64,000 nucleotides of DNA, from the NCBI GenBank assembly GCA_963840645.1, contig CAWIZL010000004.1:267470-331469 (forward strand), given 5' to 3'. The position numbers were made by a program, and so were the translations under genes. The notes under the pieces were generated by a model. That model was not told where the DNA came from, ran no database searches, and was given only the letters and a program-made list of their open reading frames with translations. Source of the DNA: Candidatus Doudnabacteria bacterium (lineage in GTDB: Bacteria; Patescibacteriota; Doudnabacteria; UBA920; VMFF01). Positions 13,063-64,000 of the stretch are shown here, piece after piece (within the stretch, counting starts at the first letter, position 1; every line of letters starts with the position of its first letter).

Positions 13063-13231
13063 GGGAACAGTATACAGTAGTTAGTAGTTAGTAGTTAGTA
13101 GTTAGTAGTTAGTAGTTAGTAGTTAGTAGTTAGTAGTTAGTAGTTAGTAGTTAGTAGCTAAATTCGAACGGCAGGCTAACGAAAAGAAAGATTTTACGGA
13201 TCCGTCTATTGTCTACTAACCAGTAACTATT
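13063..13231. repeat. Stop-rich junction element, copy D (recJ | gpmI), core inverted relative to copies A-C
   Basis: The left arm is expanded into the TAGTTAG array. The core 13155-13210 (tagctaaattcgaacggcaggctaacgaaaagaaagattttacggatccgtcta) aligns to the reverse complement of the copy C core. Confidence 0.75.
13078..13157. repeat. Heptanucleotide microsatellite (TAGTTAG) x 11.4
   Basis: Perfect 7-nt periodicity counted from 13078 to 13154, plus a trailing tag. Confidence 0.97.
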
Positions 13232-27617: not shown

Positions 27618-28952
27618 CTACGTTAAAATTTTAGGTGCGCGCTTGCCGACTGCAACGGTGTGCTCAAAGTGTGCAGATAGGCTGCCATCTTCTGTTAGAA
27701 TTGACCAGCCGTCATCTGCGAAAGCAACAGCGTAGCGGCCTGCGTTCACCATTGGCTCAATGGCAATGACCACGCCTGCTTCAAGCTTTGTGCCAGTGCC
27801 TGGGTGCCCGTAGTTTGGAACCTGTGGATCCTCGTGCACAGTGTAGCCAACGCCGTGGCCAACCAAGTCGCGTACAATGCTGAAGCCGTGGCGCTCAACG
27901 TACTGCTGGATTGCGTTGCCAATGTCGCCCGTTGTGTTGCCCTCAACTGCCTGCTGAATGCCCAGGGCCAGTGCGTGCTGCGTCACGTCTAAAAGTTCCT
28001 GAACTTCTTTTGAAACTTTGCCCACTGCAACCGTAGTGGCAGTGTCTGTGTAGCGACCCTTGTACTCCATGCCAATGTCGAGGCCAACGATGTCGCCATC
28101 GTGTAAAATTTCGCGCTTCGATGGAATGCCGTGCACGACAACGTCGTTCACAGATGTGCACAGTCCTGCTGGGAACAAATTGTCTGGGTCATCGCCAACC
28201 CCCTTGAAGGCGGGGCGGCCGCCAGCTGCAACAATCTGTGCCTCGGCAAACTCATTCAGCTCCCACGTCGAAATACCGGGAACCGCACGCTTTGCCGTGT
28301 CCCGCAAAATTTTATTGATGATTGTTCCACCCTCAGCGATGAGGGCGATGTCCTGCTCAGTTTTTACGCTTGCTTTCGAATGCATGAATGTTCTGTTGAA
28401 TTCGTTCATGGCAGCCTCTGCAACTGTGCCAGTGCCGCTCACCTTTACAAACTTGTACTGGACCTTGAGGTAGCTGACGACACCCGCAATGTTCTTCCTG
28501 TAGTACCTGAACCGGTTCGCGAGCGCAGTTGGTGTGTCATCAGTGCGTCCCCTGCCGCGCGTCCTCTCAAAAATAGTGCTGCGCGGTACCCACAGGTACA
28601 GCACGAGCACGCGGTCTTTTGTACGACCATTCTGGTTCAAAAGTTTCAGCACCAGTTTTGCCTCGCCGAGCATCTTTGGCGTGCCGTTGAAGAGTATTCC
28701 CAAGCCATCGGGCACAGACAAAATTTCACGCTTGAAGATTTCTCTCACCAGGCTCGTTGGCGCAACTTTGCCGCTGTCCATGGCTGCACGCAGAGCACGC
28801 GATCTCCTCTTCCTTAAAATTTCTCCCATATCCAGGTCGTACATGCGCCTTCGCGCCAGCAGTAAATTTGCCTGGGTTGCCTTGCCAGCACCTGGGTCAC
28901 CGAGCAGAACTACGTTGAGTGGTGGCAAAGCTTCCTTCATTTTACACTCCAA
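27618..28952 (-). CDS. map: Fusion protein: adenylate-kinase-like P-loop domain plus type I methionine aminopeptidase
   Basis: Intact 444-aa ORF. Residues 1-190 carry GDPGAGKATQ (P-loop) and RGRGRTDDTP (the Adk R-x-DD motif). Residues 195-444 are MetAP-like (HGIPS, DIVGLDIG, GHGVG, EPM, FEHTV). Confidence 0.8.
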   Translation of the reverse strand: MECKMKEALPPLNVVLLGDPGAGKATQANLLLARRRMYDLDMGEILRKRRSRALRAAMDSGKVAPTSLVREIFKREILSVPDGLGILFNGTPKMLGEAKLVLKLLNQNGRTKDRVLVLYLWVPRSTIFERTRGRGRTDDTPTALANRFRYYRKNIAGVVSYLKVQYKFVKVSGTGTVAEAAMNEFNRTFMHSKASVKTEQDIALIAEGGTIINKILRDTAKRAVPGISTWELNEFAEAQIVAAGGRPAFKGVGDDPDNLFPAGLCTSVNDVVVHGIPSKREILHDGDIVGLDIGMEYKGRYTDTATTVAVGKVSKEVQELLDVTQHALALGIQQAVEGNTTGDIGNAIQQYVERHGFSIVRDLVGHGVGYTVHEDPQVPNYGHPGTGTKLEAGVVIAIEPMVNAGRYAVAFADDGWSILTEDGSLSAHFEHTVAVGKRAPKILT

Positions 28953-38600: not shown

Positions 38601-39157
38601 TTGATGTAGAATCAGCTACTACAGTGGTGGCGGCACTGTCGTCTAAGTGCTGTACTATTTGGTAGTTTGAGTCCCACACAGCTGTTTTATTGCTCTGGTC
38701 TGTGCTTATGGAAGGATTTCCATAACACATGTAGATTACTGAGCCAGCAGAGAGGCTTGGCACCTGCACCCAAGCGGTAAGCGCACCAGTGGAGGCCGTG
38801 TAGCTCTGAACCTCAAAATTTAAAGTACTGGCGCATGATGCTGAGCTTGAAAAAATAATATCGAACCCACTTGAATTTGTTACCTTGCCCCCAGTGCCAG
38901 TCAACTGGAGGTAGCTCGAGCTTCGGTATGCTCACGAGCATTGGAAAATTGGTCTGAGTTCCTGATGCCAGGGAAGTATTTGAGGTGACGGTGATTGCCC
39001 TGTAGTTCTGCCATGCTGCCTGGGCAGCGGTCGCGTGCAAGCCGAGAAGCACGGCAGCGCAGAACGCTGCCGCGTTCAGGTACCTGAGTAGCCTGCTGCC
39101 ACCCATTTTTTTAGCACTCTCTGCAAAACTCTCTAACAGACTCTTGAGCGTGGTCAT
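32603..39157 (-). CDS. Giant secreted surface protein (frame interrupted at least 5 times; could be 2-3 adjacent genes)
   Basis: Six colinear fragments: 38813..39157, 36328..38904, 35337..36395, 33605..35305 (open to about 35395), 32742..33608 and 32603..32848. Domain order is signal peptide, DUF2341, LamG, Ig-like, FN3, beta-helix-like region, Ig-like/FN3, G/S/P/T linker, then three C-terminal repeats. Recognisable pieces include ...HATAAQA/AWQNYRAITV, ...YMCYGN, LPSGLTLD and SAPSFNGGTAISNY. Confidence 0.6.
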
Positions 39158-39260: not shown

Positions 39261-40534
39261 CTACTCGTAGCTGTGCATCACCAATTGTGCCTCAACTGCC
39301 TTGATCGTCTCAATGACAACGGCCACAACAATGAGCAAGCTGGTGCCGCCAATGGTCAGAGATTGAGAACTGGTGAAGCTCTCCAGCGCAAACGGCAGCA
39401 CAGCTATCAAGCCCAAGAACACGGCACCGAACGCTGTGATGCGGTTGAGCACGGTAGACAGGTACTCTGATGTCTGCTTGCCTGGTCGCAAGCCTGGAAT
39501 GAATCCGCCGTTGTTCTGAATGTTCTCAGCAACGTCCTCTGGGTTGAACACCACAGACGTGTAGAAGTACGTAAACAGGACAACGAGCAAGAAGTAAATA
39601 ATGCCGTAGTAGGTTTGGTTCTGGAAGAACGCAATTGTCGTAGCTGCAAAGTGCGCCACAGCAGGCGTACGAGCTGTCAGGAAAAAATTAGCTGCCAACC
39701 CTGGAAACAGCAGAATAGAGATTGCGAAAATAATAGGGATAACGCCTGCCTGGTTCACGCGCAGCGGCAGGTACGTGCTCGTGCCGCCGTAGGTCTTCGT
39801 GCCACGGATGCTCTTTGCGTACGTCACCGGAATGTTGCGCGTTGCCTCAGTCACCACAACGACGCCTGCTATAACGATGAGACCCACGATGAGGAACCCA
39901 ATGACCTCGGGCAGCTCTGATGGGGTGTAGAGGCAGATACCTGCGATAGCGCCTGGGGCAAACGTGAAATAATACCCGCAAAGATAATAAGTGAAATGCC
40001 GTTGCCAATGCCGTACTCTGTGATGAGCTCACCGAGCCACATCATGATCATGGTGCCAGTCGTCACGGCGAGCAGCGTGGTGAACCACTGGAACGCCGTG
40101 AACGAGCCGATTGGGGCTGTGCCAGTTGCGCCAGCTTGGAGCAGGTGAATGGTGCCGAAAGCCTGCAGCATTGCCAGAGGAATGGTGAGGTAGCGCGTGT
40201 ACTGGTTGAGCGTCTCGCGTCCTGCTTCGCCCCCTTCTTTCTGAAGCTCTGTCCACGATGGAATGATGATGGTGAGCAGCTGGACAATAATGGAAGCCGT
40301 AATGTACGGACCAACGCCGAGCAGCACAATGGAAAGGTTTGAAAGGCCGCCGCCAGAGAACACGTCGAGCAAGTTCAAGAACTGGTTCTGGTTGAAGAAG
40401 TTCCTGAGGTTTGCCACGTTCACAGCTGGAATTGGGACGTGCGTCAAAACACGCGTCAGCAGCAGCAGGCCGATCGTAATGAGGACCTTGTTCCTCAGGT
40501 CAGGCGTTTTCCAAATTTGCAGGAACTTATCCAT
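39261..40534 (-). CDS. secY: Preprotein translocase subunit SecY (frame interrupted once)
   Basis: ORFs 39869..40534 and 39261..39887 are colinear, multi-TM and SecY-like throughout. The break is near 39880. Confidence 0.9.
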
Positions 40535-50654: not shown

Positions 50655-51846
50655 CTACTTTATGATGGAAACCACGACACCAGCGCCTACAGTGTGGCCT
50701 CCTTCGCGGATGGCGAAGCGCTGCTTTTCTTCAAGGGCGACTGGAGTTAATGAGCTTCACGGTGAACTTCACTGTGTCGCCTGGCATAACCATTTCCTGG
50801 CCTTCTGGCAAGGGTAACTTCGCCGGTCACATCTGTTGTGCGGATGTAGAACTGTGGCTTGTAGCCTTTGAAGAACGGAGTGTGGCGACCACCTTCTTCT
50901 TTCGTCAAGATGTAAACTTCGCCTTCGAACTCGGTGTGAGGCGTAACGCTGCCTGGCTTAGCCAAGACCTGTCCGCGCTCTACGTCGTCTTTCTTTGTAC
51001 CGCGGAGCAAGATACCTGCGTTGTCGCCAGCCATACCTTCATCGAGCTGCTTGTTGAACATTTCAATACCAGTGATGACAGTCTTTGCTGTTGGGCTGGA
51101 TACCGACGATTTCGATTTCTTCGTTGATCTTAACGATGCCGCGCTCAATACGGCCTGTAACCACAGTGCCACGGCCTTCAATAGAGAAGATGTCTTCAAT
51201 TGGCATGAGGAACGGCTTGTCTGTGTCGCGAACTGGGTCTGGGATGAACGTGTCGAGTGCATCCATGAGCTTCATGATTGAAGGTTCGCCAATCTCTGAC
51301 TGGTCGCCTTCAAGAGCTTTAAGAGCTGAACCGCGGATAATTGGGTGTTGTTGCCCTGGGAAGTCGTACTTTGTGAGAAGGTCGCGAATTTCTTCTTCAA
51401 CGAGGTCGAGAAGTTCTTTGTCGTCAACCATGTCAAACTTGTTCATGAAAACGACAATGTAAGGTACGCCCACCTGCTTAGCAAGCAAGAATGTGCTCAC
51501 GGGTCTGAGGCATTGCGCCGTCAGTTGCGGAAACAACCAAGATAGCGCCGTCCATTTGGGCGGCACCTGTGATCATGTTCTTGATGTAGTCAGCGTGGCC
51601 TGGGCAGTCTACGTGTGCGTAGTGGCGCTTTTCTGTTTCGTATTCTGCGTGAGACGTGTTGATGGTAATACCGCGAGCTTTTTCTTCTGGAGCATTGTCG
51701 ATGGAATCGTACGCACGAGCCTTTGCAAAGCCCTTCTTTGCCAAAACTGTGGTGATTGCAGCTGTGAGCGTTGTCTTGCCGTGGTCAACGTGGCCAATGG
51801 TACCAACGTTCACGTGGACTTTGCTTCGTTCAAACTTATCTGCCAT
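50655..51846 (-). CDS. tuf: Elongation factor Tu (frame interrupted at least 3 times)
   Basis: The gene is in four colinear pieces. [26 protein letters not shown] starts at ATG 51846. It continues through ORFs 51478..51879, 51063..51566 and 50747..51262. The tail is [30 protein letters not shown] with stop at 50655. Confidence 0.92.
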
Positions 51847-52047
51847 GTCCTTATCCTTATGTAGCCCGAGCACGTGCACCGCGAGGGTGTCAACTCTTTT
51901 TTCCTATTCCTAGGATCCAGGGCAAAGTTAATTGTTTGTTAAATTCTTATGTCTTTCGGGCTAACTTTTCTTGGAAATGGCCTCGCACAACGCGCGCTGC
52001 GGGATCATTCACAAAAAAAGCTTCTCGAAAGCTTTGACGCTATTGGG

Positions 52048-52077
52048 AGTTTAACAGAGATTGTGCAAACCTGTCAA
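52048..52077 (-). promoter_or_regulatory. Candidate promoter upstream of tuf
   Basis: Minus strand: TTGACA (52077-52072), 18-nt spacer, TAAACT (52053-52048). A weak A/T hairpin plus T-run lies at 52013-52035. Confidence 0.35.
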
Positions 52078-52085
52078 ATGTCGCG

Positions 52086-52253
52086 CTACTGGGGATCGGT
52101 TTCCTTGAGGTCTGTAGTGTGCTCTTTGAAATCTTCCTGTATTTTGACTAGCTCTGGATCAACCACTTCAGTGTTATCTGGCAAAATCTCTACTTGATCC
52201 TTCGTGACAGGGTTTTCTGAACGGTTTTCTATATTTTTTGAAATATTTTCCAT
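52086..52253 (-). CDS. Small acidic hypothetical protein (55 aa), possibly translated from a leaderless mRNA
   Basis: MENISKNIENRSENPVTKDQVEILPDNTEVVDPELVKIQEDFKEHTTDLKETDPQ. An extended -10 TGGTATAAT (52268-52260) ends 6 nt before the ATG. Confidence 0.35.
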   Translation of the reverse strand: MENISKNIENRSENPVTKDQVEILPDNTEVVDPELVKIQEDFKEHTTDLKETDPQ

Positions 52254-52270
52254 GTCTCTATTATACCACC

Positions 52271-52312
52271 AAAAATACAAAAGAGACGAAGTCGTGGTAC
52301 GACGTTCGTCTC
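52271..52312 (-). terminator. Strong rho-independent terminator ending the 55405-52349 operon
   Basis: Nested 13-bp stem from 52283 to 52312: gagacgaa-gtcgt, loop ggt, acgac-g-ttcgtctc. On the minus strand it is followed by ttttgtattttt. Confidence 0.7.
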
Positions 52313-52348
52313 TCAGGTGTTTGGAGCCTGGCTTGGTAGCCGGCTCCG

Positions 52349-52948
52349 CTAGAAATGTTCCTCCATTTTAGCGTTGAGGCGCGTGGTGAGAAATTCCTTC
52401 CACACGCGCGTGGTGGCAATCATCATCTTCATTTTCTCTGCCCGGTTGGGCAGGTACCAATCAATGATGACGCCATCAAGTTTCGGTACGTTTGGAACGG
52501 CGTCTTCCATGTTCATGAAGATTCCGTTCCACTTGTCTCTCGCAACGTCAGCTGGCTTGCCGTCCTCCCACTTGAAGAGGTCGGAAAATTCCAGCCCGTC
52601 GCTGAATACCAGCACGTGGTCGCCGGCAACCAGGTGGTCTTCGTGGATCGTATTGAGGATCCCGAACACCAGTTCGCTGCGCTTCTCGTTGTGGAGGGTT
52701 TTAATTACCTCCTCACGGGTTTCTTCGATGTCTGACTGCCCATCACCTTTCGGTGCGTGGGCAGCGATGTCTACTTTCCTAATGAGGTTGTAGGCCCCAC
52801 TTGCGCCGAGACGGTGGAACAGGATTTGCACCCTGTAGCCTCGGTTTGTCGATTGCGATACCATGTCCGAATTGAGTCGAAGCTCCAGCTGCTCGGTGAG
52901 GAGTTTTGGATCCCCAGAACTGCTGTCAACGAACACGTCATACTTCAC
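52349..52948 (-). CDS. Hypothetical protein with alternating beta/alpha, vWA-like pattern
   Basis: Intact 199-aa ORF. The GTG start overlaps the upstream stop (GTGA). YDVFVDSSSG, VQILFHR, HVLVFSDGLE and VIIDWYL resemble vWA strands with a degenerate MIDAS motif. The assignment is tentative. Confidence 0.5.
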   Translation of the reverse strand: MKYDVFVDSSSGDPKLLTEQLELRLNSDMVSQSTNRGYRVQILFHRLGASGAYNLIRKVDIAAHAPKGDGQSDIEETREEVIKTLHNEKRSELVFGILNTIHEDHLVAGDHVLVFSDGLEFSDLFKWEDGKPADVARDKWNGIFMNMEDAVPNVPKLDGVIIDWYLPNRAEKMKMMIATTRVWKEFLTTRLNAKMEEHF

Positions 52949-53584
52949 TGGCGGGGCAACTCAATCGCGTTGAGTTCAGCCACTCGCCGCTCTACAGCGG
53001 CTCGCGCCTTGAGTAGCAGAGGTATCCGTGATGTTGGGTTTGCGTCATGCCACTGGCGGGATCAGTTCTTCGGTGGTTGGCGTTTCTTTTCCATCGATGT
53101 TTTTGATCACAACCAGGTTCAAGCCCTTGCCCTGCTTTATCCCTTTCTCACGGATGTCCGTGAGCCACTCTGGAGTGACAGCCCGTTCAGGGAAATCGCG
53201 ACGAACGGTGATGCTCTCCCAGCTCGGGACAAACGTGCTGACAGGTCGCACCGCCACAAAATAGTAGGCAGCGAAAGCGACCAGCAACCCGAACACGATA
53301 CCTGTGGCAATCCAGCTTACCGGAACGTGATCGCCATCGGATTTCTGATCGGCGTATACGTCGCTTGCTACGGATACGTGAAGCTCCGTATGCCTCACCG
53401 GAGTAGGGGTTTGCACTGGATCTGGAGAAGGTTGTGCTGCGGGAAGTACTTGTGGCACCTCCCGCAGAAACGGTTTTTGGTTTGGACTCACTGGAGGTGG
53501 TGCAGTCCGCTTTTCTATCGTTCTACCGCCGCCGAGTCTTCTCGGCGACGGCTGCTTTACACCCGACAATGGGTACATATCCAC
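52945..53584 (-). CDS. Hypothetical proline-rich single-pass membrane protein (frame interrupted once)
   Basis: ORF 53045..53584 has a P-rich N-terminus and a TM helix (WIATGIVFGLLVAFAAYYFVAV). A frame change near 53050 adds the tail ...IPLLLKARAAVERRVAELNAIELPRQ, ending at 52945. Confidence 0.5.
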
Positions 53585-53587
53585 TCC

Positions 53588-55405
53588 TTATGTTTTGTGT
53601 GCTGCTATACCTTTTTCCAGATCCGGCAGCCTTTGCTCATCTGCCGTCGGCGTTTGACCCTCAATCTGAAACTTCTTCTGCCTGCGCAGCTCAGCGGCGG
53701 CGCTCCTCTGCGCTTCCTCTGACGAACGTTGTTGAACAGCGCGGTCGAATTCGGCTTGCGCATTACGCCTCGCGGTGATCTTGCCCTTCTCGTCGTCGGT
53801 AAATTGAACGATGAGGGGTTCGATCTTGGTCAAAACATCGAGGGCGGGCAGTCTTGGATCAAATGCTGCTATTAAGGCTTCCAAGTCCGGATCCGCCAGA
53901 GCCAACGGTGCCGCGTCCTTCGCAGACTTTGCGATGCGGGCACTGGGGCCACTCTGGAGGTACCTGTCACGGTCGAGCTTGCCTTCCAGCAAGCGCATCA
54001 TCGAATCAATCAGGTCCCCAACTCCCGGCAGGTAAACTTCGCCGTGCACCCTTCGGTACCCAGCGAGTAATTCTGCGCGGTAGGTTCTCTGTTCTTTAAT
54101 GGCGGCGAGGAGCTCCTGCAGCGGAACTTCTGCACTCTGCACGTCTGCCTTGTAAGCAACGTTTGCAACTTCAATTGGGTCTGGCGCCGGCTTTGCGGCT
54201 TCTTTGAGGTCAGCTTGGTAGGCGGCCATATCGGCTTCGTACTTTGCATTCGCCTGCGCGAGGCGCTCTGAATTGCGCGCGGCACGGAGGGCGAGTTCGT
54301 TCTTGGCCAAATCTTGTGTCGAGCGCACCTTGTCAGTCAGTTTTTGCTCCTGCTCAACAAAGTACTTCGGCAGAGGCGTCGTGACGAGCATCTCGATGAA
54401 GATGCTCACGAGGAAGCAAACTGGAACCATCCAGGTTCCCAGGCTCGTACCTGCCAGAGTAGAATCACTGGCAATTTGGCTGAGCCGGTACCAAACGAAC
54501 GCTACAGTGGCAATGAAGAGGACGCTCATTGCGCCGATCCCCACGACCCACTTCGCGCTATCCGGTGCCTGTGGCTTGCCGTACCTGTTCTTCACCGTAG
54601 AATCAAGCTTTGCGAATACCGCGAGAGCTCTTTGTACGTGAGGAGGTGGTGGCACTGCTCCACTCCGAAGAGTATGAGCAAGTTGCTGAGGACTGCGATG
54701 ACGAAGATCACTGCGAACGTTGCCACTGGCCCCATGACAGTTCTGGTGACCTCAATGTTCAGAGATCCCTCGACCAAGGCCATGATGACCGACGATGCGA
54801 TGGTCACAATGAATGCAAGCTTTGCAGCTGGCATCATGACGCTGAGGAGACTTCGCTTCGGATCGCCAACCGCAGAAACACGGTTCGTCGTCAGATCGAC
54901 TGTGTACTGCTCCCACTCCTTCTCCGCCGGTGAAGAGCCGTCCTGTTCAAGGACAACCTCTCCCCTGACCGGTTCAGGAATTTGGACCGCCTGCTGAACG
55001 GGAGGTTCTATCTCCCCTTCAGCAATTTGGACCCCGCTCGCGGGTGACGTGCTCGATGACGTCAATGAATCGCCCGCGCGCCTCAGCTTCTTCTGCCTGG
55101 CGCTTTGCGGCCAGCTCTACCTTGAGAATCGGCCACCTGCTCAGAGTATCTCTCAGCCATGCGCCGTTCTCCTGAATGTGCGGGGCGACCGCGGTGTTCT
55201 CGAATTCTTTCCAGCCGTCCGCAGCGTCTAAAGCAACGCTCTCGCACAGCTCGTAAAAGTTATCGTGGTTAGTGTCAAAGGCAGCCGCGGTGCGCGACAG
55301 CCTCTTCGTGGCAATGTTATCCAGGTGGATGAGCATGCTACTGGTGTCATACATCTCGTTGCTGTTTGCCGCCAACTCTTCGGCGTTTTTGTTTTCGCTT
55401 TGCAT
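53588..55405 (-). CDS. Hypothetical membrane protein of about 600 aa, with about 5 TM helices and a long coiled-coil C-terminal half (frame interrupted twice; may be up to 3 ORFs)
   Basis: ORFs 55019..55405, 54592..55065 and 53588..54655 are colinear. The junction at C-run 55032-55035 restores ...HVTRER/VQIAEGEIEPP. The second junction is near 54640. AGGGAGG lies before the ATG at 55405. Confidence 0.5.
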
Positions 55406-55547
55406 ACTAATACTTAACCTCCCTATATTCTAAAGTTGAACTTCTGCTACAGGTGCCAAGCAAAGGATAAGTAAGATTGCACTCAACCTATGCACGGCAC
55501 CTGGCCGCAGAAATCAACCTGTATTCGGTTGTAAAAGTACTGGTCGC

Positions 55548-55576
55548 ATTTTAACATTTATAAATGATATTGTCAA
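55548..55576 (-). promoter_or_regulatory. Sigma70 promoter for the 55405-52349 operon
   Basis: Minus strand: TTGACA (55576-55571), 17-nt spacer, TAAAAT (55553-55548). The leader is about 140 nt. Confidence 0.6.
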
Positions 55577-55638
55577 TAGTTAGACCTTATATTTTTATTA
55601 ATTAGCAAAAATACCAATATACCATGACTTTTAGCCTA

Positions 55639-55667
55639 TTGACATATAGTTAAAATACTGGTATAAT
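55639..55667 (+). promoter_or_regulatory. Perfect-consensus sigma70 promoter for the plus-strand island genes
   Basis: TTGACA (55639-55644), 17-nt spacer, TATAAT (55662-55667). The leader is about 140 nt and ends in AAGGAGG, 8 nt before the ATG at 55815. Confidence 0.7.
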
Positions 55668-55814
55668 AGTATCAAATAAAATAATTTACGGCTTCACGCA
55701 AGCTTACTCTTCACTAGCAAGAAAAGCTTACACGAGGCTATAAACCCAGAAACTCCCAGTGTTTGCCTCAAAACACTGGAACGCACCAAAAACCCACAAG
55801 GAGGGTTTGAGACG

Positions 55815-56729
55815 ATGTTTACAAAGAAATGCTTCACCGTGCGCATCGCTGTATTGTTGCTGATGGTATTCGGGTTCAATACCCTTGCCGCAGCAGCTGA
55901 ACAAATCCAAGCCAAAAAGCTTGGCCCAATTGCCAGCCTCGAAAAAGCCGGCAAATCAATGTACTTTCTGACCTCGCTGCTCGACGAGAAAGGCAACAAG
56001 CTTGATCCAGCAGACAACGGCAAGTGGCCTGATGGAAGCTTCACCCTTCCCGACGACGCGGTCGAAGACAAAGAAGGCACGTTCGCCTTCCTGGCTGCCA
56101 TCAATGACAGCCCGACCAAAGCAAAGGGCAAGAAAGCTCAAGGCTTCCACAAAGGCACGCCTCTTGGATGTCCTCCTCCTACTGAGAAGGTCATCGAAAA
56201 AGCAATCACGAAAGAGCACGATCTCTTCGAGCTCACGGTGACCAAGACCATCAAGGTAGGAGAAGTTGCAACGTTTGAGAAGTTCTCAGACGGCAGCGCT
56301 TTCTACACAGTGGAGGTGGATCAGACCACCAAAGGGGTAACAGAATTCAACCAGAGCGATAACACCTTTACGCTCACCGGCAAAAAGGTTGGTAGAAACA
56401 TCATCACGGTGTGGGTCGCGACGGACAAAAAGATCCGCGAGTTGATCAACGTTGACGTTGTGGCAGCAGCACCCGCTGCTGGCACAGGCTCTGGAACTTC
56501 AGCCATAACAATTGCAACCTGGACAGTTGGTGGTGTGATTGTCCTCCTCATGTTGCTGGTGTTGCTGGTAATTTTTCTGGTGAGCAAGGCGAAGCCGAGG
56601 CACACTCTTGGTCTCTTTTTCAGAACAGACTACCCGGACGAACCAGTTTCTACAGAGAGCACTCAGCACGTGGCGCCTACACAGGCACCGCCCGCTCGAG
56701 ATGACGACGACCGCTACGAGCGAGTGTAG
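55815..56729 (+). CDS. Hypothetical type I membrane protein (signal peptide, Ig-like ectodomain, C-terminal TM anchor)
   Basis: Intact 304-aa ORF with signal peptide ...FNTLAAAAEQ, a beta-rich segment TVTKTIKVGEVATF...FTLTGKKVGRNIITVWV, and a TM helix WTVGGVIVLLMLLVLLVIFLV. A strong SD precedes it. Confidence 0.65.
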   Translation: MFTKKCFTVRIAVLLLMVFGFNTLAAAAEQIQAKKLGPIASLEKAGKSMYFLTSLLDEKGNKLDPADNGKWPDGSFTLPDDAVEDKEGTFAFLAAINDSPTKAKGKKAQGFHKGTPLGCPPPTEKVIEKAITKEHDLFELTVTKTIKVGEVATFEKFSDGSAFYTVEVDQTTKGVTEFNQSDNTFTLTGKKVGRNIITVWVATDKKIRELINVDVVAAAPAAGTGSGTSAITIATWTVGGVIVLLMLLVLLVIFLVSKAKPRHTLGLFFRTDYPDEPVSTESTQHVAPTQAPPARDDDDRYERV

Positions 56730-56858
56730 CCGTAAAACACATTTGTCATGGGAGAGCCAAGCAACGATAGGCCGGCGAAATACCGCTACTTCCGAAAGGG
56801 AGCATGTAAGTAACCACCATTTGACTTTTGCACTTCATTGAACATCGTACACCGCAAG

Positions 56859-56890
56859 TCTACGTCCAAATCTTGGATGTAGATTTTTTG
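56859..56890 (+). terminator. Rho-independent terminator
   Basis: 10-bp stem: tctacgtcca, loop aatct, tggatgtaga (one G-U pair), followed by TTTTTTG. Confidence 0.7.
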
Positions 56891-56943
56891 CTTTTGAGGC
56901 AAAATACGCTATAATTTTAATATAAATTCTCTACGCCACACTA

Positions 56944-57921
56944 ATGTTCAACAACTGGTTTCGAGATAGAGACAACGGCGAACGTGGCCACCACGACAGT
57001 GAAGTCGAGGTTGATCTTACAGACAGCACTGGACGCACCATTGGCACGCAGATAATGCCACGATCTGAGGCTCTTGAACACGGCTACGACCTCATTGACG
57101 CACCAGAGCGCGAGCGTCTGGCAGATGAAATAACCTTGCAAGCTGGAGAAGTTGCGCAGCACGAGGGCGTTCTCCACCAGGGCTTCAACGTGAACCAGAG
57201 GATGAACATTGCGAACCCTGAAGTGCCGCACTTTTTAACTGAGAGAGCCAATGAATCTAGGTCGTTTGGACAAAAAACAAAAACCTTCATTGTTGGCTTG
57301 GTTGCCGGCACAGATGCAGCTGCTGCAATTACGTACAAAACCGCAGTGGGCGCAGGCGTTCGCAGTGCGATTAAGCACACCCTAAACTTTGCTGCACCTG
57401 GAGCTGGTGCTGCTGTTGGCGCTGTTGTGGGTGGATCGTGGGAGGGTGTAAAAGCTTCGCGCCAAGAGAGCCAGCGTGTTGAGGCTGAGCAGGCTCGTTA
57501 CAGAGAGGCACTGGAGGCGATCACGGGTACAGAAGATCGCATGGAAGAGCTCTTGAAGATGCGCAATGAGAGCGACGTGGAGCACCTATCTCCAGAGCAG
57601 CAGCACGTGCTCGAACAGTACCGCGCGGTTAAAAAAGATAGGAAAAAAATTGGCATCGCAATCCTGAAAGGCGCTGCGATTGGCTGCCTGGGCGGTGCTG
57701 TCGGCGGCGCACTCATTGAGGTGGCAAGCTACGGCTTGCACCACCTAGCTGACCTTGAAAAATTAAAAGCCGCTGGAGACGCCGTGAAGAAAGTTTTCCA
57801 GTACACGGTCAAGCCGGGTGCTCCAAATGTTTTCAGATTTGAAAACAAAGATGTTGTCCAAGACATGAGCAAGAGCACATGGAACACGGTCAAGGAATGG
57901 TACAGAAGCTCACGGAATTGA
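56944..57921 (+). CDS. Hypothetical protein with two glycine-zipper-like hydrophobic segments and a central charged helix
   Basis: Intact 325-aa ORF with GLVAGTDAAAAITYKTAVGAGV/APGAGAAVGAVVGG and GAAIGCLGGAVGGALIEV. TATAAT lies at 56910-56915. It may continue into the next ORF by a frame change. Confidence 0.55.
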   Translation: MFNNWFRDRDNGERGHHDSEVEVDLTDSTGRTIGTQIMPRSEALEHGYDLIDAPERERLADEITLQAGEVAQHEGVLHQGFNVNQRMNIANPEVPHFLTERANESRSFGQKTKTFIVGLVAGTDAAAAITYKTAVGAGVRSAIKHTLNFAAPGAGAAVGAVVGGSWEGVKASRQESQRVEAEQARYREALEAITGTEDRMEELLKMRNESDVEHLSPEQQHVLEQYRAVKKDRKKIGIAILKGAAIGCLGGAVGGALIEVASYGLHHLADLEKLKAAGDAVKKVFQYTVKPGAPNVFRFENKDVVQDMSKSTWNTVKEWYRSSRN

Positions 57922-57979
57922 TAAGCCGAGCAATAAGTTAATCAACGAAGGCGTCAGGAAGCTGGCAGCAATCAACAAC

Positions 57980-60009
57980 GTGGAAATTACTGAAGATCAC
58001 CTCACGCAAGCAGCCCAAGCCGTACACAACCACGTTGCTGACGGCGTTCGTGATACGGCAATGCAGGCAAACTTTCCACTGCACCACCTGGAATCTCTCA
58101 ACGGTTTAATCGAGAGCGCCGGTGGCCAGCCAGAACAGCTGACGCAGATCATAACAGCTCCAGGAGTTGACACGCTCATCCCCCAGCTTGAGTACGTAGA
58201 CGGCGGGACTTCTGATGAGCTTGAAAAAATTGGGGTTCTGGCTTTGCTCGCAGCTGCTGGGGCTGGCGCTGCTGCAGGCACTGCGATGCTGCTGCGGAAA
58301 AAAAGACGCGGTGAAGAAAAAGAATCCGACAACGAAGAAGGTGCGGCGCAAGAACCTGAAGCACGTGCAGCAGAAGAAAAACCAGAGGTGCCCAGACCCA
58401 GAAGCAGATCACAAAGGTGACGAGTTTGCTTGGCACCAAGCCCGAGAAAAAATTAGAGAGAGCTTTGGGAGAATCAGGTCTGGAATACAGGATGCTGAGG
58501 CTGCCCTGTTGGCTGGAGAGATTGAACGCGCGCAAGACTTCTACAGAAACGCAGAAGATACTTTCTATAACATCTCTGTAGAAGATCTACGCGCAGCGCA
58601 AGCCACTGACAGAAAAGATAGCCTGGGCACAGAGCTCCCACGACCTCCAGGGCAAAATCATAAAAGCAAGCCAGGACGCTGAGGCAACCAAGAGAACAGT
58701 CCACACACCAGACGAACCTCCTGCCAAAACCCGAACGGAAATAGAAAATATCGAGAAAGAAAAGCTGGCCGAAAAAGAGAGGCAGTGGCGTTTTGTGCTC
58801 GATGAAACAGAATCAGCCCTTCGCAACAACGAACTAGAGCTGGCTGAGCAGCTGCTCGGACAGGCCAACGATACTGGAATTGATTTTGCGAGAAGGGCGC
58901 GCGCTCTTTCAAACGCGAGCGGCAACAACGAGAGTGGGCAGGCCTACTCAGAGCTTAAACGTAGAGAAAATAAACTGCTAGAGGAACTGTCTGAACGAAT
59001 GAAAGCCGAGGTTAAAATAGAACCAGAGGCTGCGCCAGCTGAACCAAAAGAAGCTCGCCACGTAAAACGTGATTACAGCGAAGCGCAGGTCGAAAGAGCG
59101 GCTGCGATAATCGAAAAAGCCTTCGACTCTGCTGACTCTGAAATTATTTTTCTCGATGAAGACCCTGCGGTTGGGTTGCAAAAAATTCTCTCTGTTTTGG
59201 GTAAGATCGATGAGCTGGCAAACCAACGAGATACGCCTGCGCGCGTGAAAAAAATATACAGCGACGAATGTTATAGTTTGGTCAATAGAATTCACGAAGC
59301 GGGACACGACAATGTAGCTGTGCAGCTCTGGAAAAAGATAGGCCGCGGGGAGCCACTGCCTTTCACAACGGCGGAAGAAGAGACAAACGTAGGCTTGGAT
59401 AACCTAGAGAGACTCAATCACGATATTGAGCAATCTCTCTTGGCGGGAGACACGGCCGGTGCTGCAGAACTACAAGAACAGTTTGCAGCTGAAGTCGCCT
59501 CAATGCCTTTTTCCCTAAACAGGCTAGCAACTAACGAAAAAATCTCAGCACAGGAAAGACTGGATGATATTCAAGCTGCTAACCGCGCGCTGTACGGAGG
59601 AGCTGGTGAGCCTACTTTTGTAGAGCCATCCACAGAGACCAAGCTGACCAAGAAACAGGCTGCCATTTTCGAACGCGCGAAATCCGAAGGCATAAACTTG
59701 TACCCGGAGATGGCGACAAAGTGGAACGAATTTACGCTACCAAGAGAAAGAGGTGGCACGCTGTGGAGCTTAGTTGACAGACAGCTACTCACGCCGAAAG
59801 AAGCTTTAGACATAATTGACGAAATAAAGAGCGTCAAAGAATGGCGCACAAAGAAAGTAAACCTATCTGAACTCACGGATGCTTTCCAGATCCTCTTAAA
59901 AAAGAAGCAGGTCAAGGCTATAAAAAGTGCCGTCGAGGAGATGCGCAGCATGAACGCTGCAATGGATGCGGCGTACAATGAGGCCAAGAAAAAAGGTAAC
60001 AAAAAATAA
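57980..60009 (+). CDS. Hypothetical single-TM, long coiled-coil protein of about 675 aa (frame interrupted twice)
   Basis: ORFs 57980..58420, 58215..58682 and 58795..60009 (the last frame open from about 58630) are colinear, with breaks near 58400 and 58640. One TM helix (GVLALLAAAGAGAAAGTAMLL). The rest is K/E/A-rich helical sequence. Confidence 0.5.
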
Positions 60010-60011
60010 TT

Positions 60012-60329
60012 ATGCAGTCACTCACAGAGCTACAGGAAAAATACACCGCTCAGTTTTTCCAAGATTTCAAGCTACAGAAAAGCAGCGCTGAAACTCAAGA
60101 AAAAATCTTGGCAATGGTTTCGCACCGCCTTTTAGACGTTGCGGTGACAACGTGCATTGCTGCGATGAATGGCGAGCAGCTCGAACGTTTCTCGGCTACG
60201 CTCGCAGACCCAGAAAAAAATCAGGGAAAGATAAGTTCTATTGCCGCAGAGATTCCTGGGCTGCAAGCAGCTATTGAGCAGGCTTACCTACGGGAGTACG
60301 AAGTTTTAAAGGGAAGCTTCGTGCTGTAG
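60012..60329 (+). CDS. Small helical hypothetical protein (105 aa)
   Basis: Intact ORF starting 3 nt after the previous stop: MQSLTELQEKYTAQFFQDFKLQKSS... Confidence 0.55.
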   Translation: MQSLTELQEKYTAQFFQDFKLQKSSAETQEKILAMVSHRLLDVAVTTCIAAMNGEQLERFSATLADPEKNQGKISSIAAEIPGLQAAIEQAYLREYEVLKGSFVL

Positions 60330-60344
60330 AACGAAAGCTCTTTG

Positions 60345-60385
60345 AATAGGCTTTTCGTGTATAAAAGCACGGAACGCCTATTTTT
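60345..60385 (+). terminator. Rho-independent terminator
   Basis: aataggc(ttttcgtg tataaaag cacggaac)gcctatt, followed by TTT-A-TT. Confidence 0.55.
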
Positions 60386-60425
60386 ATTGGCTTTTCTCAT
60401 ATATAAGACTGGCCACTGGCACTAT

Positions 60426-60454
60426 TTGACATATTATATATAATATAGTATAAT
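60426..60454 (+). promoter_or_regulatory. Second perfect-consensus sigma70 promoter
   Basis: TTGACA (60426-60431), 17-nt A/T-only spacer, TATAAT (60449-60454). The leader is about 145 nt and ends in GGGAGGAG before the ATG at 60601. Confidence 0.7.
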
Positions 60455-60600
60455 AGGTGTTCACAGGTTGAGAAGGTTTGCCAACATCTAGCAACCCTCC
60501 CCTGCCTGCGAACAACGCTCACGCGTTGAAGTTCGGCTGGCCACCGCAAGGGTGTTTACACCCGAAGGGTGCACATTTAAAAACTCTGGGAGGAGTTGGC

Positions 60601-61386
60601 ATGAATGTTACAAGTGCAATTGAAGGATTGAAAAAGTTTCTTCTCTGGATTTTCCCGTACAAGTGGCTCGAGACCCTCATCGACATAGCGGTTGCAACGT
60701 GGGGTGCCAAAACAATTCTCGAGGGCCAGTCGCGGAAAAACACCTCCCCCACTTTGTGAACTACAACAGTGGTGGAAACTCAAACGCATTCAATGACCTT
60801 CTGCGGGATTTTGAAAAAATGCCAGATGCCGCAGCGAGAGCCGACACCATCAGGACGTGGCTTCTACGGTGGGCGAAAACCGACCACAGGAGGGCGGAAC
60901 ACTTGAAGCTCTCTATAGCAAAAAAAGCCTTAGGAGCGGGTACACTAGACCCAAAATCCTCTGGGTACGGATACGCAATGCAAGACCTGCTCGATCTTGC
61001 CACAGCTGGTCGCTTCGCAGACGAACGCGGCGACGGAGATCGCACACAGAGAGCCGAAGAACTTGGCCTGGTCATGCCGCACTACGGCATGTACTTTGAC
61101 CAAAAAATCCTGGGGTGGGTTAAACGAGAGTTTACCCGCTTCCATGGGCCTAAACGTATGTCGGTTTTATCTGTTACGTGGGACATCGTACTGCTGGCAC
61201 TCCAGGTGCTCTCAGTTGTTGTGTTCCTCGGACTAGCCGCCTTAGTGCTCATGGCACTGTGCGTTGGGTTGCTCGTTCTCAGCCTGGCATACCCCGTAAT
61301 AGGGTTGCTAGTGTTTATTGCCACGGCCGTAGCCGGCTTGGTGGGTCCTCGTACGAACAAAAACAAAAGAGACAGAAGGAGAATAG
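60601..61386 (+). CDS. Hypothetical membrane protein (frame interrupted once; 3' end 61386 or 61502)
   Basis: MNVTSAIEGLKKFLLWIFPYKWLETLIDIAVATWGAKTILEG. A break near 60730 joins it to the ORF 60663..61502 frame. There are 2-3 C-terminal TM helices (VLSVVVFLGLAALVLMALCVGLLVLSLAYPVIGLLVFIATAVAGLVG). Confidence 0.5.
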
Positions 61387-61387
61387 A

Positions 61388-62461
61388 ATGGAAAAGTTCT
61401 TTAAAGGATTGTGGTTCATCGTGCTGGCTATCGCTGCCTACACCTGTTTTCACTTTAGCCGGTGGGAGACGCTTGCCTTCATTGGCGTGCTTGCGGCACT
61501 GACACTGTGGCAAACAAACAAGGGTCTGGCAACGGCCATCTTCGCGTTAGCCGTATACTCTCTCTTGTGGAATTGGAGTTCGTCCCACAATTCGGGAACT
61601 GTCCAGCTCACGCAACGGCTCTTCGGCAACGGCAAAGACCACCTCAAGAATGGCCTTGTCAGGCTCGACCAATCCACCACAGCGGACAGGTGGATTAAGT
61701 ACCAGGTCAAACAGGATACATGGCCCATCAAGTGCTGCCGCAAGAACAACTTTGACCGCAAGACGGGTCAACTGCTCCACACCGATATTGGCACTCAAAC
61801 GCCACTCCCCCTCGAAGCGGGTACGGTAGTGCAAAGTGCCTTCTCTACAGCCGAACAGGAACAAAAAACCTGGGACATGGGAACCTGGTACGAAGGTAGA
61901 AAGTACCTACCAGTAAACATTTTACGAGAGGGCACTCACGGCAAACTCTTTGAGTTCGGTGATACGTCTATGATCTACCTGGTAGACCCAGATGACCTGG
62001 TGGAGGTCGACACCGACAAGGTTAACGGAACCACCGCGGTTTCGGAAAAACCAAAGGTTAGGCCAGCCAATACAAAGAAGGCTGCCACGCCACCACCAGT
62101 TGCCTCCTACGAGAGGAACGGCACCGTGCCAGGTACGTGGCAAGCAGCAGAGGGCGTCATTCGCCCAACCCTGATGGTCACGCTGTCAGGGCAAGACCCA
62201 GCCGAAGTTGCGGTTGGCGTTGTGCACCCAGGCTCTATTGTATGGGTGACCCAGCAACCTGGCGAGACCGAGGATCCAGGCAGCGATGTCCAGGTCACGG
62301 TAGCTGGGAAAAAGGTTGCATTCGATGAGTGCAGCCTCAAAAACTTCTGCAGCTTCAGCGTTCTGGCCAACAACCAGACGCAGGTGCCGCAAAACGTAAC
62401 CATAAACAATATATCGAGGAGGAAACACGTCGTGACCGTTTACGGCCTCGACGCGTTCTAA
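61388..62461 (+). CDS. Hypothetical protein with two N-terminal TM helices and a beta-rich ectodomain
   Basis: ATG at 61388 is preceded by AGGAG. MEKFFKGLWFIVLAIAAYTCF...LAFIGVLAALTLW... 357 aa, in the frame of ORF 61178..62461. Confidence 0.6.
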   Translation: MEKFFKGLWFIVLAIAAYTCFHFSRWETLAFIGVLAALTLWQTNKGLATAIFALAVYSLLWNWSSSHNSGTVQLTQRLFGNGKDHLKNGLVRLDQSTTADRWIKYQVKQDTWPIKCCRKNNFDRKTGQLLHTDIGTQTPLPLEAGTVVQSAFSTAEQEQKTWDMGTWYEGRKYLPVNILREGTHGKLFEFGDTSMIYLVDPDDLVEVDTDKVNGTTAVSEKPKVRPANTKKAATPPPVASYERNGTVPGTWQAAEGVIRPTLMVTLSGQDPAEVAVGVVHPGSIVWVTQQPGETEDPGSDVQVTVAGKKVAFDECSLKNFCSFSVLANNQTQVPQNVTINNISRRKHVVTVYGLDAF

Positions 62462-62492
62462 AAGCCAGTGAGACTCTCGCTGGCTTCAACCA

Positions 62493-62536
62493 GGGCAGAC
62501 CCACGCAACCGCGTGTGGCCTGCCCTTCTTTTTTTT
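62493..62536 (+). terminator. Rho-independent terminator between convergent genes
   Basis: gggcag-a-cccacgc, loop aacc, gcgtgtgg-c-ctgccc, followed by ttctttttttt. Confidence 0.75.
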
Positions 62537-62546
62537 AAAAAATTAC

Positions 62547-62831
62547 CTACTCCCCAGTTAGATCGGTGACCTGTTCAAGCACATCGCCGTCTATTTCATC
62601 CTCGGCTTTCCTATCAATGGCATCCATTTCGAGTTGAGACCTTTCAAGGTTCTTCGCAATGCCATCAACCGAGTTGCTGATAGCTTCTAAATTTTGCAGT
62701 GCCTCTTTGTCGTCTTCCTGCATCTCTTGAACCGTTGCCTGGGCGCTGGCAGCCAAAACTTCCAGCTCATCGAGTGCTGCATCAATCTCTTGTGGTCCCA
62801 TGCCATTCTCTAACGTTGTGACGTTATCCAT
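62547..62831 (-). CDS. Small, very acidic helical hypothetical protein (94 aa)
   Basis: Intact ORF: MDNVTTLENGMGPQEIDAALDELEVLAASAQATVQEMQEDDKEALQNLEAISNSVDGIAKNLERSQLEMDAIDRKAEDEIDGDVLEQVTDLTGE. Confidence 0.5.
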   Translation of the reverse strand: MDNVTTLENGMGPQEIDAALDELEVLAASAQATVQEMQEDDKEALQNLEAISNSVDGIAKNLERSQLEMDAIDRKAEDEIDGDVLEQVTDLTGE

Positions 62832-62855
62832 ATTTTTATTCTTACCAATCAGAGC

Positions 62856-64000
62856 TTAGGCTGCTCGCCTTAGATCGTCTTCATCTGGGGCAAAGAAAGC
62901 TTCCAGGTCAACGTTCACCTCACCCTGTGGAACCTTTAAAAATTTTGAGTAAGCCTTAACAATGCTCGTGAAGCTTGCCTGGTCTAGCTCGCGATTGGCC
63001 TGAAACTTCATTTTCTTGAAGAGGAACGGCAGGTCAATGGAGTGCGCGGCAGAGTTCGCACCATACCTGCGCCCCATAAATTTATTCCACTTACGAACTG
63101 CTGCGTCCAAGCTGACTTTTTTAACGGCCTGCTCTGCTGCCTCAACTGCAGGCTCAGTGTCAACTGCCGACCGCCCATTCACAACTTCCAGCCTTGGCCG
63201 GCTTCCAGCCTGCGGCTGCAAAGGCCTGCCATCTTTGATGCGAACAAATTCATCACGTTTGTGCCTGTACGGGTTTGCGCCAGCTTCAACTTTTACAATT
63301 TGCGCTTTCACCTCACGCTTCTTTTTGGCAATAGCTTCTTGGCGTTCCCTGATCGGCCCCTGTCCTTTGCCAAAGCCTCTCGGTGTTGCTGAATGACCTC
63401 GTGCCTCTTAATCTGCCTATCTGACATTCCCGCTACTTTCAGGGCAGCCTCGAGGCGCGACATGCGCTGCTCAGCAGCATCTAGCTCGGCTTGCTTTTCC
63501 TTGTGGACAACCTCTGCAAGAGAGGCTTCCAAATCGACTTCGCGATCTTTACCGCTGAGGTCTTCCAGTTCTTTTTCGAATGGCCGTAGCTTTTCAGCGT
63601 AGCTAGCTATGAGCCTATCTGCCACGCTGTCTCTCTTGTCAATGTGTACCTGATTCTTGCCGTTGCGATGTTCGAGCTTTACCTGGACAGCGCTCCTCTC
63701 ATGTGACAGCTTAGCTTGCTCGCCATCTAATTTCTTTAACTGGTGTTCGAGCGACGCTACTCCTGGCATCTCCATTCTCCGGAGATCGGCAATTGCCCGT
63801 TCAATCTCAGTTCTTGAGGTGTTGAGGGCTGTACTGCGAGCATCGACGAGCTTCATTTTCCCCTTGAGCTTCACGGCACGCTCTTCGTGCATATCAGCCC
63901 AAAACTGCTTGTGCGCAATCTCCACCTTGGCGACCACACGGTTCACCAGTGGAATTTTGTACACGCCTTCGTAGATGCGCGATGCAAGGGACTTGGCAGC
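62856..64000 (-). CDS. Hypothetical coiled-coil protein, 5' end beyond the window (frame interrupted once, or two coupled genes)
   Basis: The frame of ORF 63308..63964 is open to nt 64000. One extra base at 63355-63360 joins ...HREALAKDRG to PIRERQEAIAKKKREVKAQIVKVEAG (ORF 62856..63311). Otherwise the two are coupled by a GTGA overlap. Confidence 0.5.

Follow-up and report, generated by a model that had tools for sequence, protein, structure and literature searches.

An island of orphan membrane and coiled-coil genes beside tuf in a Candidatus Doudnabacteria genome

Introduction

What does a bacterium with a genome of 524 kb encode in a block of about 12 kb next to tuf in which no gene belongs to a recognisable family? 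The block, here called the island, forms the right end (52080-64000) of a 64,000-nucleotide stretch of a Candidatus Doudnabacteria genome (GenBank assembly GCA_963840645.1, contig CAWIZL010000004.1, positions 267,470 to 331,469, forward strand), and the whole of this stretch is referred to as the window. An earlier note, made from the letters of the window alone, had interpreted the island as a dedicated, strongly expressed cell-envelope structure or host-contact apparatus. We label its genes P1 to P13. Our analysis inclines us, with moderate confidence, to view the island as a native, strongly expressed and fast-diverging membrane or envelope locus in a variable slot of the str operon, in which a conserved module stands beside a genome-specific remainder.

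Results

Right of tuf the window changes character

Calls of open reading frames (ORFs) place about 12 genes in the island after frameshift fragments are merged, and an ORF is present at every coordinate set of the earlier note. P1–P4 are read on the minus strand, P5–P10 on the plus strand, and P11 and P12/13 again on the minus strand. No island ORF product scored above threshold in Pfam, NCBIfam, PHROGs or PADLOC, which bears out the description of some 12 orphan genes; in contrast, nine of ten large ORFs elsewhere in the window (its left 52 kb) have clear Pfam domains. The change of character right of tuf is real. Seven island sequences are on record, all on one contig of 523,761 bp and each the sole member of its cluster when about 15 billion proteins are grouped at 90% identity, and sequence searches of the PDB with P2, P4c, P5, P6 and P7c returned nothing significant. 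No pilin, ATPase, secretin, SLH or sortase domain reached threshold in Pfam and NCBIfam, where the only sub-threshold hits were Gram_pos_anchor (E 0.031) and T2SS-T3SS_pil_N (E 0.088). A motif scan of the island proteins found no Walker A, LPXTG, lipobox or metal-ion-dependent adhesion site (MIDAS) motif. Family and motif searches together uphold the reported lack of ATPase, nuclease, integrase and capsid signatures.

Scans of genome and metagenome collections with P10 and P5 gave no match. A word-indexed protein search with all island ORFs joined into a single query of 3755 amino acids (aa) found none either, but this negative is weak, because such a search is blind to relatives without shared 5-mers and the relatives of P9 and P10 described below escaped it for that reason.

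By hydropathy, membrane segments occur in seven genes (P3, P4, P5, P6, P7, P9 and P10), and P2, P8, P11 and P12/13 have no hydrophobic segment. The island is thus membrane-rich, as had been claimed, although the count of "at least 8" such genes falls to seven, the number of coordinate pairs that accompanied it. The four proteins said to be rich in K, E and A were correctly recognised: P4c, P7, P11 and P13 consist to 50-58% of A, E, K, L, Q and R.

The reading frames have to be judged against the quality of the assembly. The contig is unpolished long-read sequence, as the indel frequency in essential genes shows. Ribosomal-protein genes contain about ten frameshifts in 12.5 kb, and core coding sequence has roughly one indel in every 1.2 kb; tuf (50658-51879) lies in five pieces in different frames when compared with the EF-Tu of a relative, and L4 (48517-49154), L2 (47337-48172), L22, L14, L18 and secY (39264-40534) are split as well. 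Because essential genes such as tuf, L2, L4 and secY are broken at the same rate, the frameshifts of the island are assembly errors that stem from sequencing. About ten were therefore to be expected in the island, and adjacent overlapping ORFs were merged, giving the models P4 (55405 to 53588), P7 (57980 to 60009), P9 (60601 to about 61502) and P12/13 (64000 to 62856). P4a and P5 are exactly reproduced by an independent Logan contig; a contig with exactly P5 is present in ERR11571140.

A slot of variable length and content in the str operon

Ribosomal protein L3 finds its best matches in metagenome-assembled genomes of Candidatus Doudnabacteria and other Patescibacteria (72-76% identity), and the S10-spc synteny is fully conserved, in agreement with the patescibacterial origin inferred earlier. 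The closest relative found by core proteins is L161, a 485,598-bp scaffold (GROS21-1 scaffold_8) of ENA record ERZ19399433 whose amino-acid identities with the window are 90% for L3, 97% for S10, 81% for L23 and about 76% for L4. In blastn comparisons the two sequences are 77-78% identical from L23 through tuf and its promoter (TTGACA-18-TAAACT, 10 of 12 consensus positions; 52048..52079, minus strand), an equivalent of which, also 10/12, is present in L161. The similarity ends at 52079, and this base marks the left edge of the island.

What lies beyond this edge differs from genome to genome. In L161 the order is tuf, a giant gene of 1405 aa, a DUF5663 gene, a P9 homologue, a P10 homologue, a 105-aa acidic protein, a 225-aa protein, a Phd-like gene and fusA. 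The fusA–tuf gap measures 9.6 kb in L161 and between 0.74 and 5.1 kb in L001-L019 and L084-L095 (0.74 kb in L011, 0.76 kb in L010, 3.2 kb in L002 and L004, 5.1 kb in L001), and it shrinks to 0.13-0.17 kb in the outgroup Patescibacteria L021, L102 and L105; L106 has no fusA within 7.4 kb upstream of tuf. Its content differs even between L001 and L002, which share 91% identity in EF-G. The genes found in the gaps of relatives are likewise coiled-coil or membrane proteins without Pfam domains, except for a small Phd/YefM-like gene and the DUF5663 gene. The locus thus combines conserved flanks with variable length and content, the hallmarks of a flexible genomic island, with tuf seen directly as one flank and fusA predicted by synteny as the other.

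Homologues of the island genes are few. In tblastn searches of 160 loci no island protein gave a match at E < 0.05. Clear homologues were recognised for P9 and P10 in L161 and for P10 and P11 in L167, with weaker links for P13 and P8, and P1–P7 have no detectable relative in 43 related loci.

The giants of L161 (3776-7993, 1405 aa) and L106 (2425-7122, 1565 aa) have no Pfam domain and are homologous to each other (Smith-Waterman z 31). Both adjoin tuf and each is preceded by a DUF5663 gene, so that the pair is conserved. Profiles of the two giants (best E 0.39) and of the Phd-like gene retrieved nothing among the 1244 six-frame ORFs of the window. The L106 giant contains an HELTH motif, and the C-terminus of the L161 giant may have the look of a family-2 glycosyltransferase, as judged by eye.

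The Phd-like gene itself is a separate feature of these genomes. Its product of about 110 aa weakly resembles Phd/YefM antitoxins (Pfam E 4e-4), and the gene sits directly downstream of fusA in most Doudnabacteria-like genomes (L001, 4522-4866; L161, 12289-12615; also L002, L004, L008-L019, L086 and L089), with no obvious toxin partner. No copy was detected in the window.

The right third of the island is kept in relatives

P9 and P10 form an operon behind a promoter of perfect consensus (12/12; 60426..60454, plus strand), followed by a 140-nucleotide leader and the Shine-Dalgarno site GGGAGGAG. In L161 the P9 homologue is preceded by a promoter of the identical 12/12 grade, and the Shine-Dalgarno sites are kept too. 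P9 (60601..61502, plus strand), modelled from ORFs and homology, contains a frameshift near 60660-60750 and has an uncertain 3' end (61386-61502). In its product a short hydrophobic stretch at the N-terminus precedes a soluble helical domain, which is conserved, and membrane helices at the C-terminus; its homologue in L161, g456, shares 38% identity (phmmer 5e-20, Smith-Waterman z 34).

P10 (61388..62461, plus strand; 357 aa), described from its ORF, hydropathy and a structure model, is predicted with low confidence to start with three membrane helices that lead into two beta-rich domains. The first of these ends in an IYLVxPxxL motif, and a Pro/Thr/Ala linker joins it to the second, at the C-terminus, in which two Cys residues are conserved. 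The AlphaFold2 model, built on a three-sequence alignment, reached a mean confidence (pLDDT) of 49, and Foldseek searches against the PDB returned generic beta-sandwich matches at E 0.009 or weaker; the models of P10 and P2 are poor because alignments are lacking. An exhaustive HMMER search with P10 gave three real matches, namely P10 itself, P0008 (8.6e-10) and P0010 (3.8e-4), the last of which is carried by the L161 scaffold and adjoins the P9 homologue in its fusA–tuf gap. Compared directly, P10 and g373 of L161 share 27% identity (phmmer 2e-12). Profile searches with the P9 and P10 families returned L161 proteins only, apart from the P10 query. A further candidate, L001_542, has a P10-like architecture and a 'VYLVETDRL' motif; the P10-family hidden Markov model (HMM) does not match it at E up to 5, and we regard it as an architectural analogue rather than a homologue.

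Between the convergent P10 and P11 lies a bidirectional hairpin terminator (62492..62536), flanked on either side by T/A runs; its folding energy is -25.2 kcal/mol for the plus strand and -32.4 kcal/mol for the minus strand. P11 (62547..62831, minus strand) is an ORF for a helical, very acidic protein of 94 aa with a net charge of -21. L167, a 1-kb JGI contig, holds its homologue (Smith-Waterman z 11.2, phmmer 3e-7), again in convergent orientation to that of P10, and small acidic proteins occupy the position of P11 in L161, L001 and L002. P12 and P13 (62856..64000, minus strand, called from ORFs) are probably one gene, split by a frameshift within 63311-63407 and cut by the end of the window. 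The N-terminal part of the product is a coiled coil, and its C-terminal domain contains an SxDxxVxxWNK motif. P13 resembles L001_520 (Smith-Waterman z 9.9) and L002_690 (z 5.8), and a profile of this L001/L002 coiled-coil family ranked the P13 ORF first of the 1244 window ORFs (E 4e-7).

In L161, then, both members of the P9–P10 pair have homologues that are adjacent and co-oriented, converge on a small acidic gene and lie in the fusA–tuf gap. Based on these sequence relationships, P9, P10, P11 and probably P12/13, the right third of the island, constitute a lineage-conserved, fast-diverging module.

Expression signals of the island

Three island promoters match the sigma-70 consensus at 12/12 (P5), 12/12 (P9–P10) and 11/12 (P4) positions, and 17 promoter-like sites were found where 6.3 ± 2.6 are expected. 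Strong promoters are not special to the island, since those of S10 (11/12) and tuf (10/12) are equally good. Shine-Dalgarno sites of at least 5 nucleotides precede only P4, P5, P9 and P10 in the island and none of 26 core genes. The earlier contrast between the island and the core genes therefore stands for ribosome binding but not for promoters, and the strong Shine-Dalgarno sites then ascribed to the island belong to these four genes only, the remaining ones having no site of this length. Leaders of 135-140 nucleotides precede the three promoter-proximal genes; they share no common motif and have no Rfam match.

The four hairpin terminators that were said to bound four transcription units all fold (-21 to -32 kcal/mol, z -3.6 to -5.6, each followed by a T run). 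The number of units, however, is five or six, with P5 on its own and P6 preceded by its own TATAAT.

Genes P5–P8

The P5 promoter (55639..55667, plus strand) is a perfect 12/12 consensus with a TG extension, a 140-nucleotide leader and an AGGAGG Shine-Dalgarno site. P5 (55815..56729, plus strand; 304 aa, from ORF and hydropathy) begins with a stretch that resembles a signal peptide, continues with an ectodomain of about 200 aa and closes with a C-terminal membrane anchor and a tail of 50 aa. P5 is the source of the T2SS-T3SS_pil_N hint (E 0.088, Pfam), beside which stands one equally sub-threshold PDB hit, 2yrl_A ('KIAA1837 protein', E 0.68). With the promoter on one side and a hairpin terminator on the other (56856..56886, plus strand, recognised by fold energy and T run), P5 is monocistronic. 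A TATAAT at 56910-56915, downstream of this terminator and ahead of P6, may restart transcription for P6–P8.

P6 (56944..57921, plus strand; 325 aa, from ORF and hydropathy) has two Gly/Ala-rich hydrophobic segments around a charged helical stretch. It weakly resembles the Gly/Ala-rich part of the L106 giant (Smith-Waterman z 3.7) and has no notable PDB match. P7 (57980..60009, plus strand), about 680 aa when two frameshifts (within 58200-58417 and 58582-58679) are bridged, was assembled from ORFs and hydropathy. Its acidic N-terminus of 85 aa leads to a single membrane helix, behind which come RKKRR and a charged, helical C-terminus of about 580 residues. No match to P7 was found in Pfam, PHROGs, PADLOC, NCBIfam, the PDB or phages. 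Its HEAGH sequence (an HExxH motif; window 59290-59310, P7c residue 238) is probably not meaningful, because about 0.1 HExxH is expected by chance in the island.

P8 (60012..60329, plus strand; 105 aa) is a candidate for a very divergent member of DUF5663. It resembles L106_107 (Smith-Waterman z 7.4; phmmer 4.6e-5 in a tiny database), a protein that matches the DUF5663 model PF18908 at E 2e-10, and a two-sequence DUF5663 profile ranked the P8 ORF first of the 1244 window ORFs (E 0.0028). The Pfam model PF18908 itself does not match P8 at E up to 0.1. The unit ends in a hairpin terminator at 60344..60385 (plus strand; -27.2 kcal/mol, z -5.6).

Genes P1–P4

Next to tuf lies P1 (52086..52280, minus strand), a doubtful small acidic ORF call whose likely ATG at 52253 would give 55 aa; no homologue was found, and its exact sequence is absent from the protein collection. 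An extended -10 element, TGGTATAAT (52253-52268, minus strand), identical to that of the P5 promoter, lies 7 nucleotides ahead of this ATG. Because the element sits directly before the start codon, the P1 transcript, located between the P2 terminator and the tuf promoter, may be leaderless.

P4, P3 and P2 form one unit. Its promoter (55548..55576, minus strand; TTGACA-17-TAAAAT with TG, 11/12 in the promoter scan) is followed by a 135-nucleotide leader containing a long hairpin at about 55430-55520 (minus strand; -55 kcal/mol, z -6.4) without an Rfam match, which may be a regulatory or stabilising 5' structure. P4 (53588..55405, minus strand), about 610 aa after bridging of two frameshifts (near 55040-55060 and 54640-54670), is preceded by a GGAGGT Shine-Dalgarno site; according to ORFs and hydropathy, about 190 soluble N-terminal residues and a coiled-coil-type C-terminus of 260 aa enclose four membrane helices. 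It matches nothing in Pfam, PHROGs, PADLOC, NCBIfam or the PDB. P3 (53045..53584, minus strand; 179 aa) has a Pro-rich basic N-terminus, a membrane helix at residues 92-110 by hydropathy and a 70-aa C-terminal domain, and falls into no family of Pfam, PHROGs, PADLOC or NCBIfam. The unit ends in a hairpin terminator at 52271..52312 (minus strand; -26.3 kcal/mol, z -3.8, then a U run).

P2 (52349..52948, minus strand; 199 aa, a singleton cluster) is soluble, with predicted alternating helix and strand. It had tentatively been likened to a von Willebrand factor A (vWA) domain, with which it has in common the alternation of strands and helices, 'DSSSG' close to the N-terminus and a strand reading 'VFSDG'. 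The pattern suits other alpha/beta folds equally, though, and the assignment is not supported: no VWA-type HMM of Pfam matches, the sequence reads D-S-S-S-G instead of the DxSxS of a MIDAS motif, and the single-sequence AlphaFold2 model (pLDDT 40) is unusable. P2 has no match in Pfam (E up to 0.1), PHROGs, PADLOC, NCBIfam or the PDB. A TIR-like domain, an idea raised by the N-terminal 'YDVFVDS', was dropped as it had no HMM support in Pfam or PADLOC.

Features elsewhere in the window

The heptamer TAACTAC occurs 23 times in the window against 2.4 expected. A perfect tandem array of 11.7 copies (13076-13157) lies just upstream of an ORF ending at 13062; further copies lie 6 nucleotides upstream of the starts at 16024, 44510 and 46211 and near 40534, 45443 and 49154. 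Several core genes without a Shine-Dalgarno site carry the heptamer upstream at the spacing typical of such sites, and it may act as another signal for the start of translation; the 21 kb of L161 do not contain it.

A second cluster, on the minus strand at 32742-38904, encodes large probable surface proteins with recognisable domains (Laminin_G_3, He_PIG, fn3, DUF2341 and a purple acid phosphatase N-terminal domain) and, at 35337-36395, a 352-aa ORF with no domain. At 27618-28952 (minus strand), a 444-aa ORF joins adenylate kinase (residues 16-164) to a methionine aminopeptidase of family M24 (205-436). This may be a genuine adk-map fusion, or else an indel error has run two separate genes together.

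Discussion

Our analysis of the island revealed native-looking genes with strong expression signals, a slot whose content changes between relatives, and a right third that recurs in other genomes. On this basis we propose the following working model of two layers. The first would be a P9–P10 membrane-protein operon facing the small acidic P11 and the coiled-coil P12/13, kept in relatives. The second would be genome-specific and consist of P1–P8, at the place where relatives carry DUF5663 and a giant of 1400-1565 aa; P8 could be a remnant of the DUF5663 partner, and the role of the giant may here fall to P6 and P7. P4 and P7 would then be bitopic or polytopic proteins with large coiled-coil domains, which the positive-inside rule places probably on the cytoplasmic side; P5, P10 and P3 would display small ectodomains, and P8, P11 and P12/13 would serve as soluble, charged helical partners. 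The strong promoters could make the membrane proteins abundant, and the Shine-Dalgarno sites of P4, P5, P9 and P10 may add to this. Those protein parts that are exposed would belong to the outer face of the cell, for example in contact with host cells or as phage receptors. In a slot that tolerates recombination, diversifying selection and the replacement of genes may together have rendered the sequences unrecognisable even between fairly close genomes.

Several points weigh against this reading. The fusA gene lies outside the window, and the placement of the island between fusA and tuf relies on the synteny of L161. Five samples yielded copies of the L161 locus with 99.95-100% identity, which are thus uninformative on microdiversity. 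P10 was the one island protein covered by the exhaustive search of 1.84 billion representative proteins, and remote homologues of P1–P8 may exist elsewhere, including in the L161 genome beyond the 21 kb seen. The links of P8, P6/P7 and P13 are weak, and shared composition may account for part of them. Localisation and topology were derived from hydropathy and the positive-inside rule only. By that rule, and since signal peptides are absent, the greater part of the coiled-coil mass would lie in the cytoplasm or on soluble proteins; this prediction weakens the picture of surface fibrils and fits an envelope-exposed, selection-driven locus less well.

Could all of the roughly 12 genes nevertheless build the one dedicated, strongly expressed envelope or host-contact apparatus of the earlier note? 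The island is a compact block of divergent and convergent operons with consensus promoters and clean terminators, its products are mostly membrane-anchored or of coiled-coil type, and at least 2.3% of the genome is spent on it; P9–P10 with P11, and probably P12/13, also keep their arrangement in relatives. Yet just three to five of the 12 genes recur there, and L161 has the giant and DUF5663 between its P9 homologue and tuf. Pfam, NCBIfam and motif searches found no motor, ATPase, secretin, pilin, sortase or other machine-type component, and strong promoters also drive the neighbouring core operons. Since most island genes fail the test of co-occurrence and synteny in relatives, a single 12-gene apparatus is not supported, and we hold it to be improbable; the P9–P13 module on its own could still encode one.

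We consider it similarly improbable that P5–P8, perhaps with P4, arose from the DUF5663–giant pair by divergence, rearrangement and fragmentation and did not replace it. The two loci are alike in chromosomal position, in the adjacency of the DUF5663-like P8 to the long P7, and in Gly/Ala-rich hydrophobic segments followed by basic or charged helices in P6, P7 and the giants (z 3.7-3.8), and an HExxH motif is present in both P7 and the L106 giant. However, the profile of the two giants finds no counterpart in the window, where the giants have no significant similarity to any island protein, and strand and gene order are reversed relative to L161 and L106. The resemblances that exist are compositional, and an HExxH arises by chance about once per ten such regions. 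We found no mention of DUF5663 in the literature.

It is very unlikely that the block is a horizontally acquired mobile element, the remains of a prophage or an island of anti-phage defence. A variable slot full of orphans is often seen in such islands, and the GC content at third codon positions is somewhat below that of the core (0.57 vs 0.65). Against this, Pfam and PHROGs yielded no integrase, capsid or terminase, a lone PHROG of unknown function at E 0.005 being the only hit; PADLOC defence models reached E 0.006 or weaker, and only on coiled-coil stretches; and searches of viral contigs, phages and plasmids were all negative. The island has no tRNA gene and no long flanking or internal repeats within the window, its relative synonymous codon usage correlates with that of the core (r = 0.86), and part of it is syntenic in relatives. 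Least credible of all is an artefact of decaying pseudogenes or misassembly with gene-like ORFs: assembly indels are many and several island genes are split across frames, but essential genes are split just as often, long intact ORFs have native codon usage, P4a and P5 recur exactly in the Logan contig, and P9, P10 and P11 have homologues in other assemblies.

How does the native, fast-diverging envelope locus that we favour compare with known systems? Flexible islands at conserved chromosomal positions that encode parts of the envelope are familiar from other bacteria, for example the hypervariable region HVR2 between the rRNA genes of SAR11 and the islands of Prochlorococcus. The locus described here resembles them in its fixed slot, conserved core flanks, changing content, envelope or membrane products and native-like composition. 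It differs in its setting, the str operon of a patescibacterial genome of about 0.5 Mb, and in its cargo, which consists of orphan coiled-coil and membrane proteins instead of glycosyltransferases or O-antigen genes.

Protein families enriched in the candidate phyla radiation (CPR) are mostly unannotated, 76 of 106 have a transmembrane helix, and most are membrane or extracellular proteins for which a role in cell-cell interaction has been proposed (Meheust et al. 2019, PMC6744442). A cluster of orphan membrane genes is therefore typical of the CPR. Unlike those families, which are widespread across the CPR, the island proteins are singletons or occur in one to three other assemblies (among 1.84 billion representatives).

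What is the relevance of such a locus? Orphan membrane proteins are common in Patescibacteria, which tempers the weight of the island. Nonetheless, a genome of 0.5 Mb that maintains at least 12 kb of orphans, several of which have strong expression signals, in one of the most conserved operons of bacteria presumably does so for something important. In addition, the fusA–tuf slot provides an easily located marker for comparing variable envelope genes across Doudnabacteria. We further speculate, as a long shot, that P9–P13 with swappable neighbours (P1–P8 here, the giant and DUF5663 in relatives) form a highly expressed, envelope-spanning attachment structure specific to Doudnabacteria; if so, it would be a new type of host-contact organelle in ultra-small bacteria, with exposed parts that are exchanged or diversified between lineages. 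If the island proteins do shape the cell surface or host contact, they would be candidates for the attachment biology of Patescibacteria other than Saccharibacteria.

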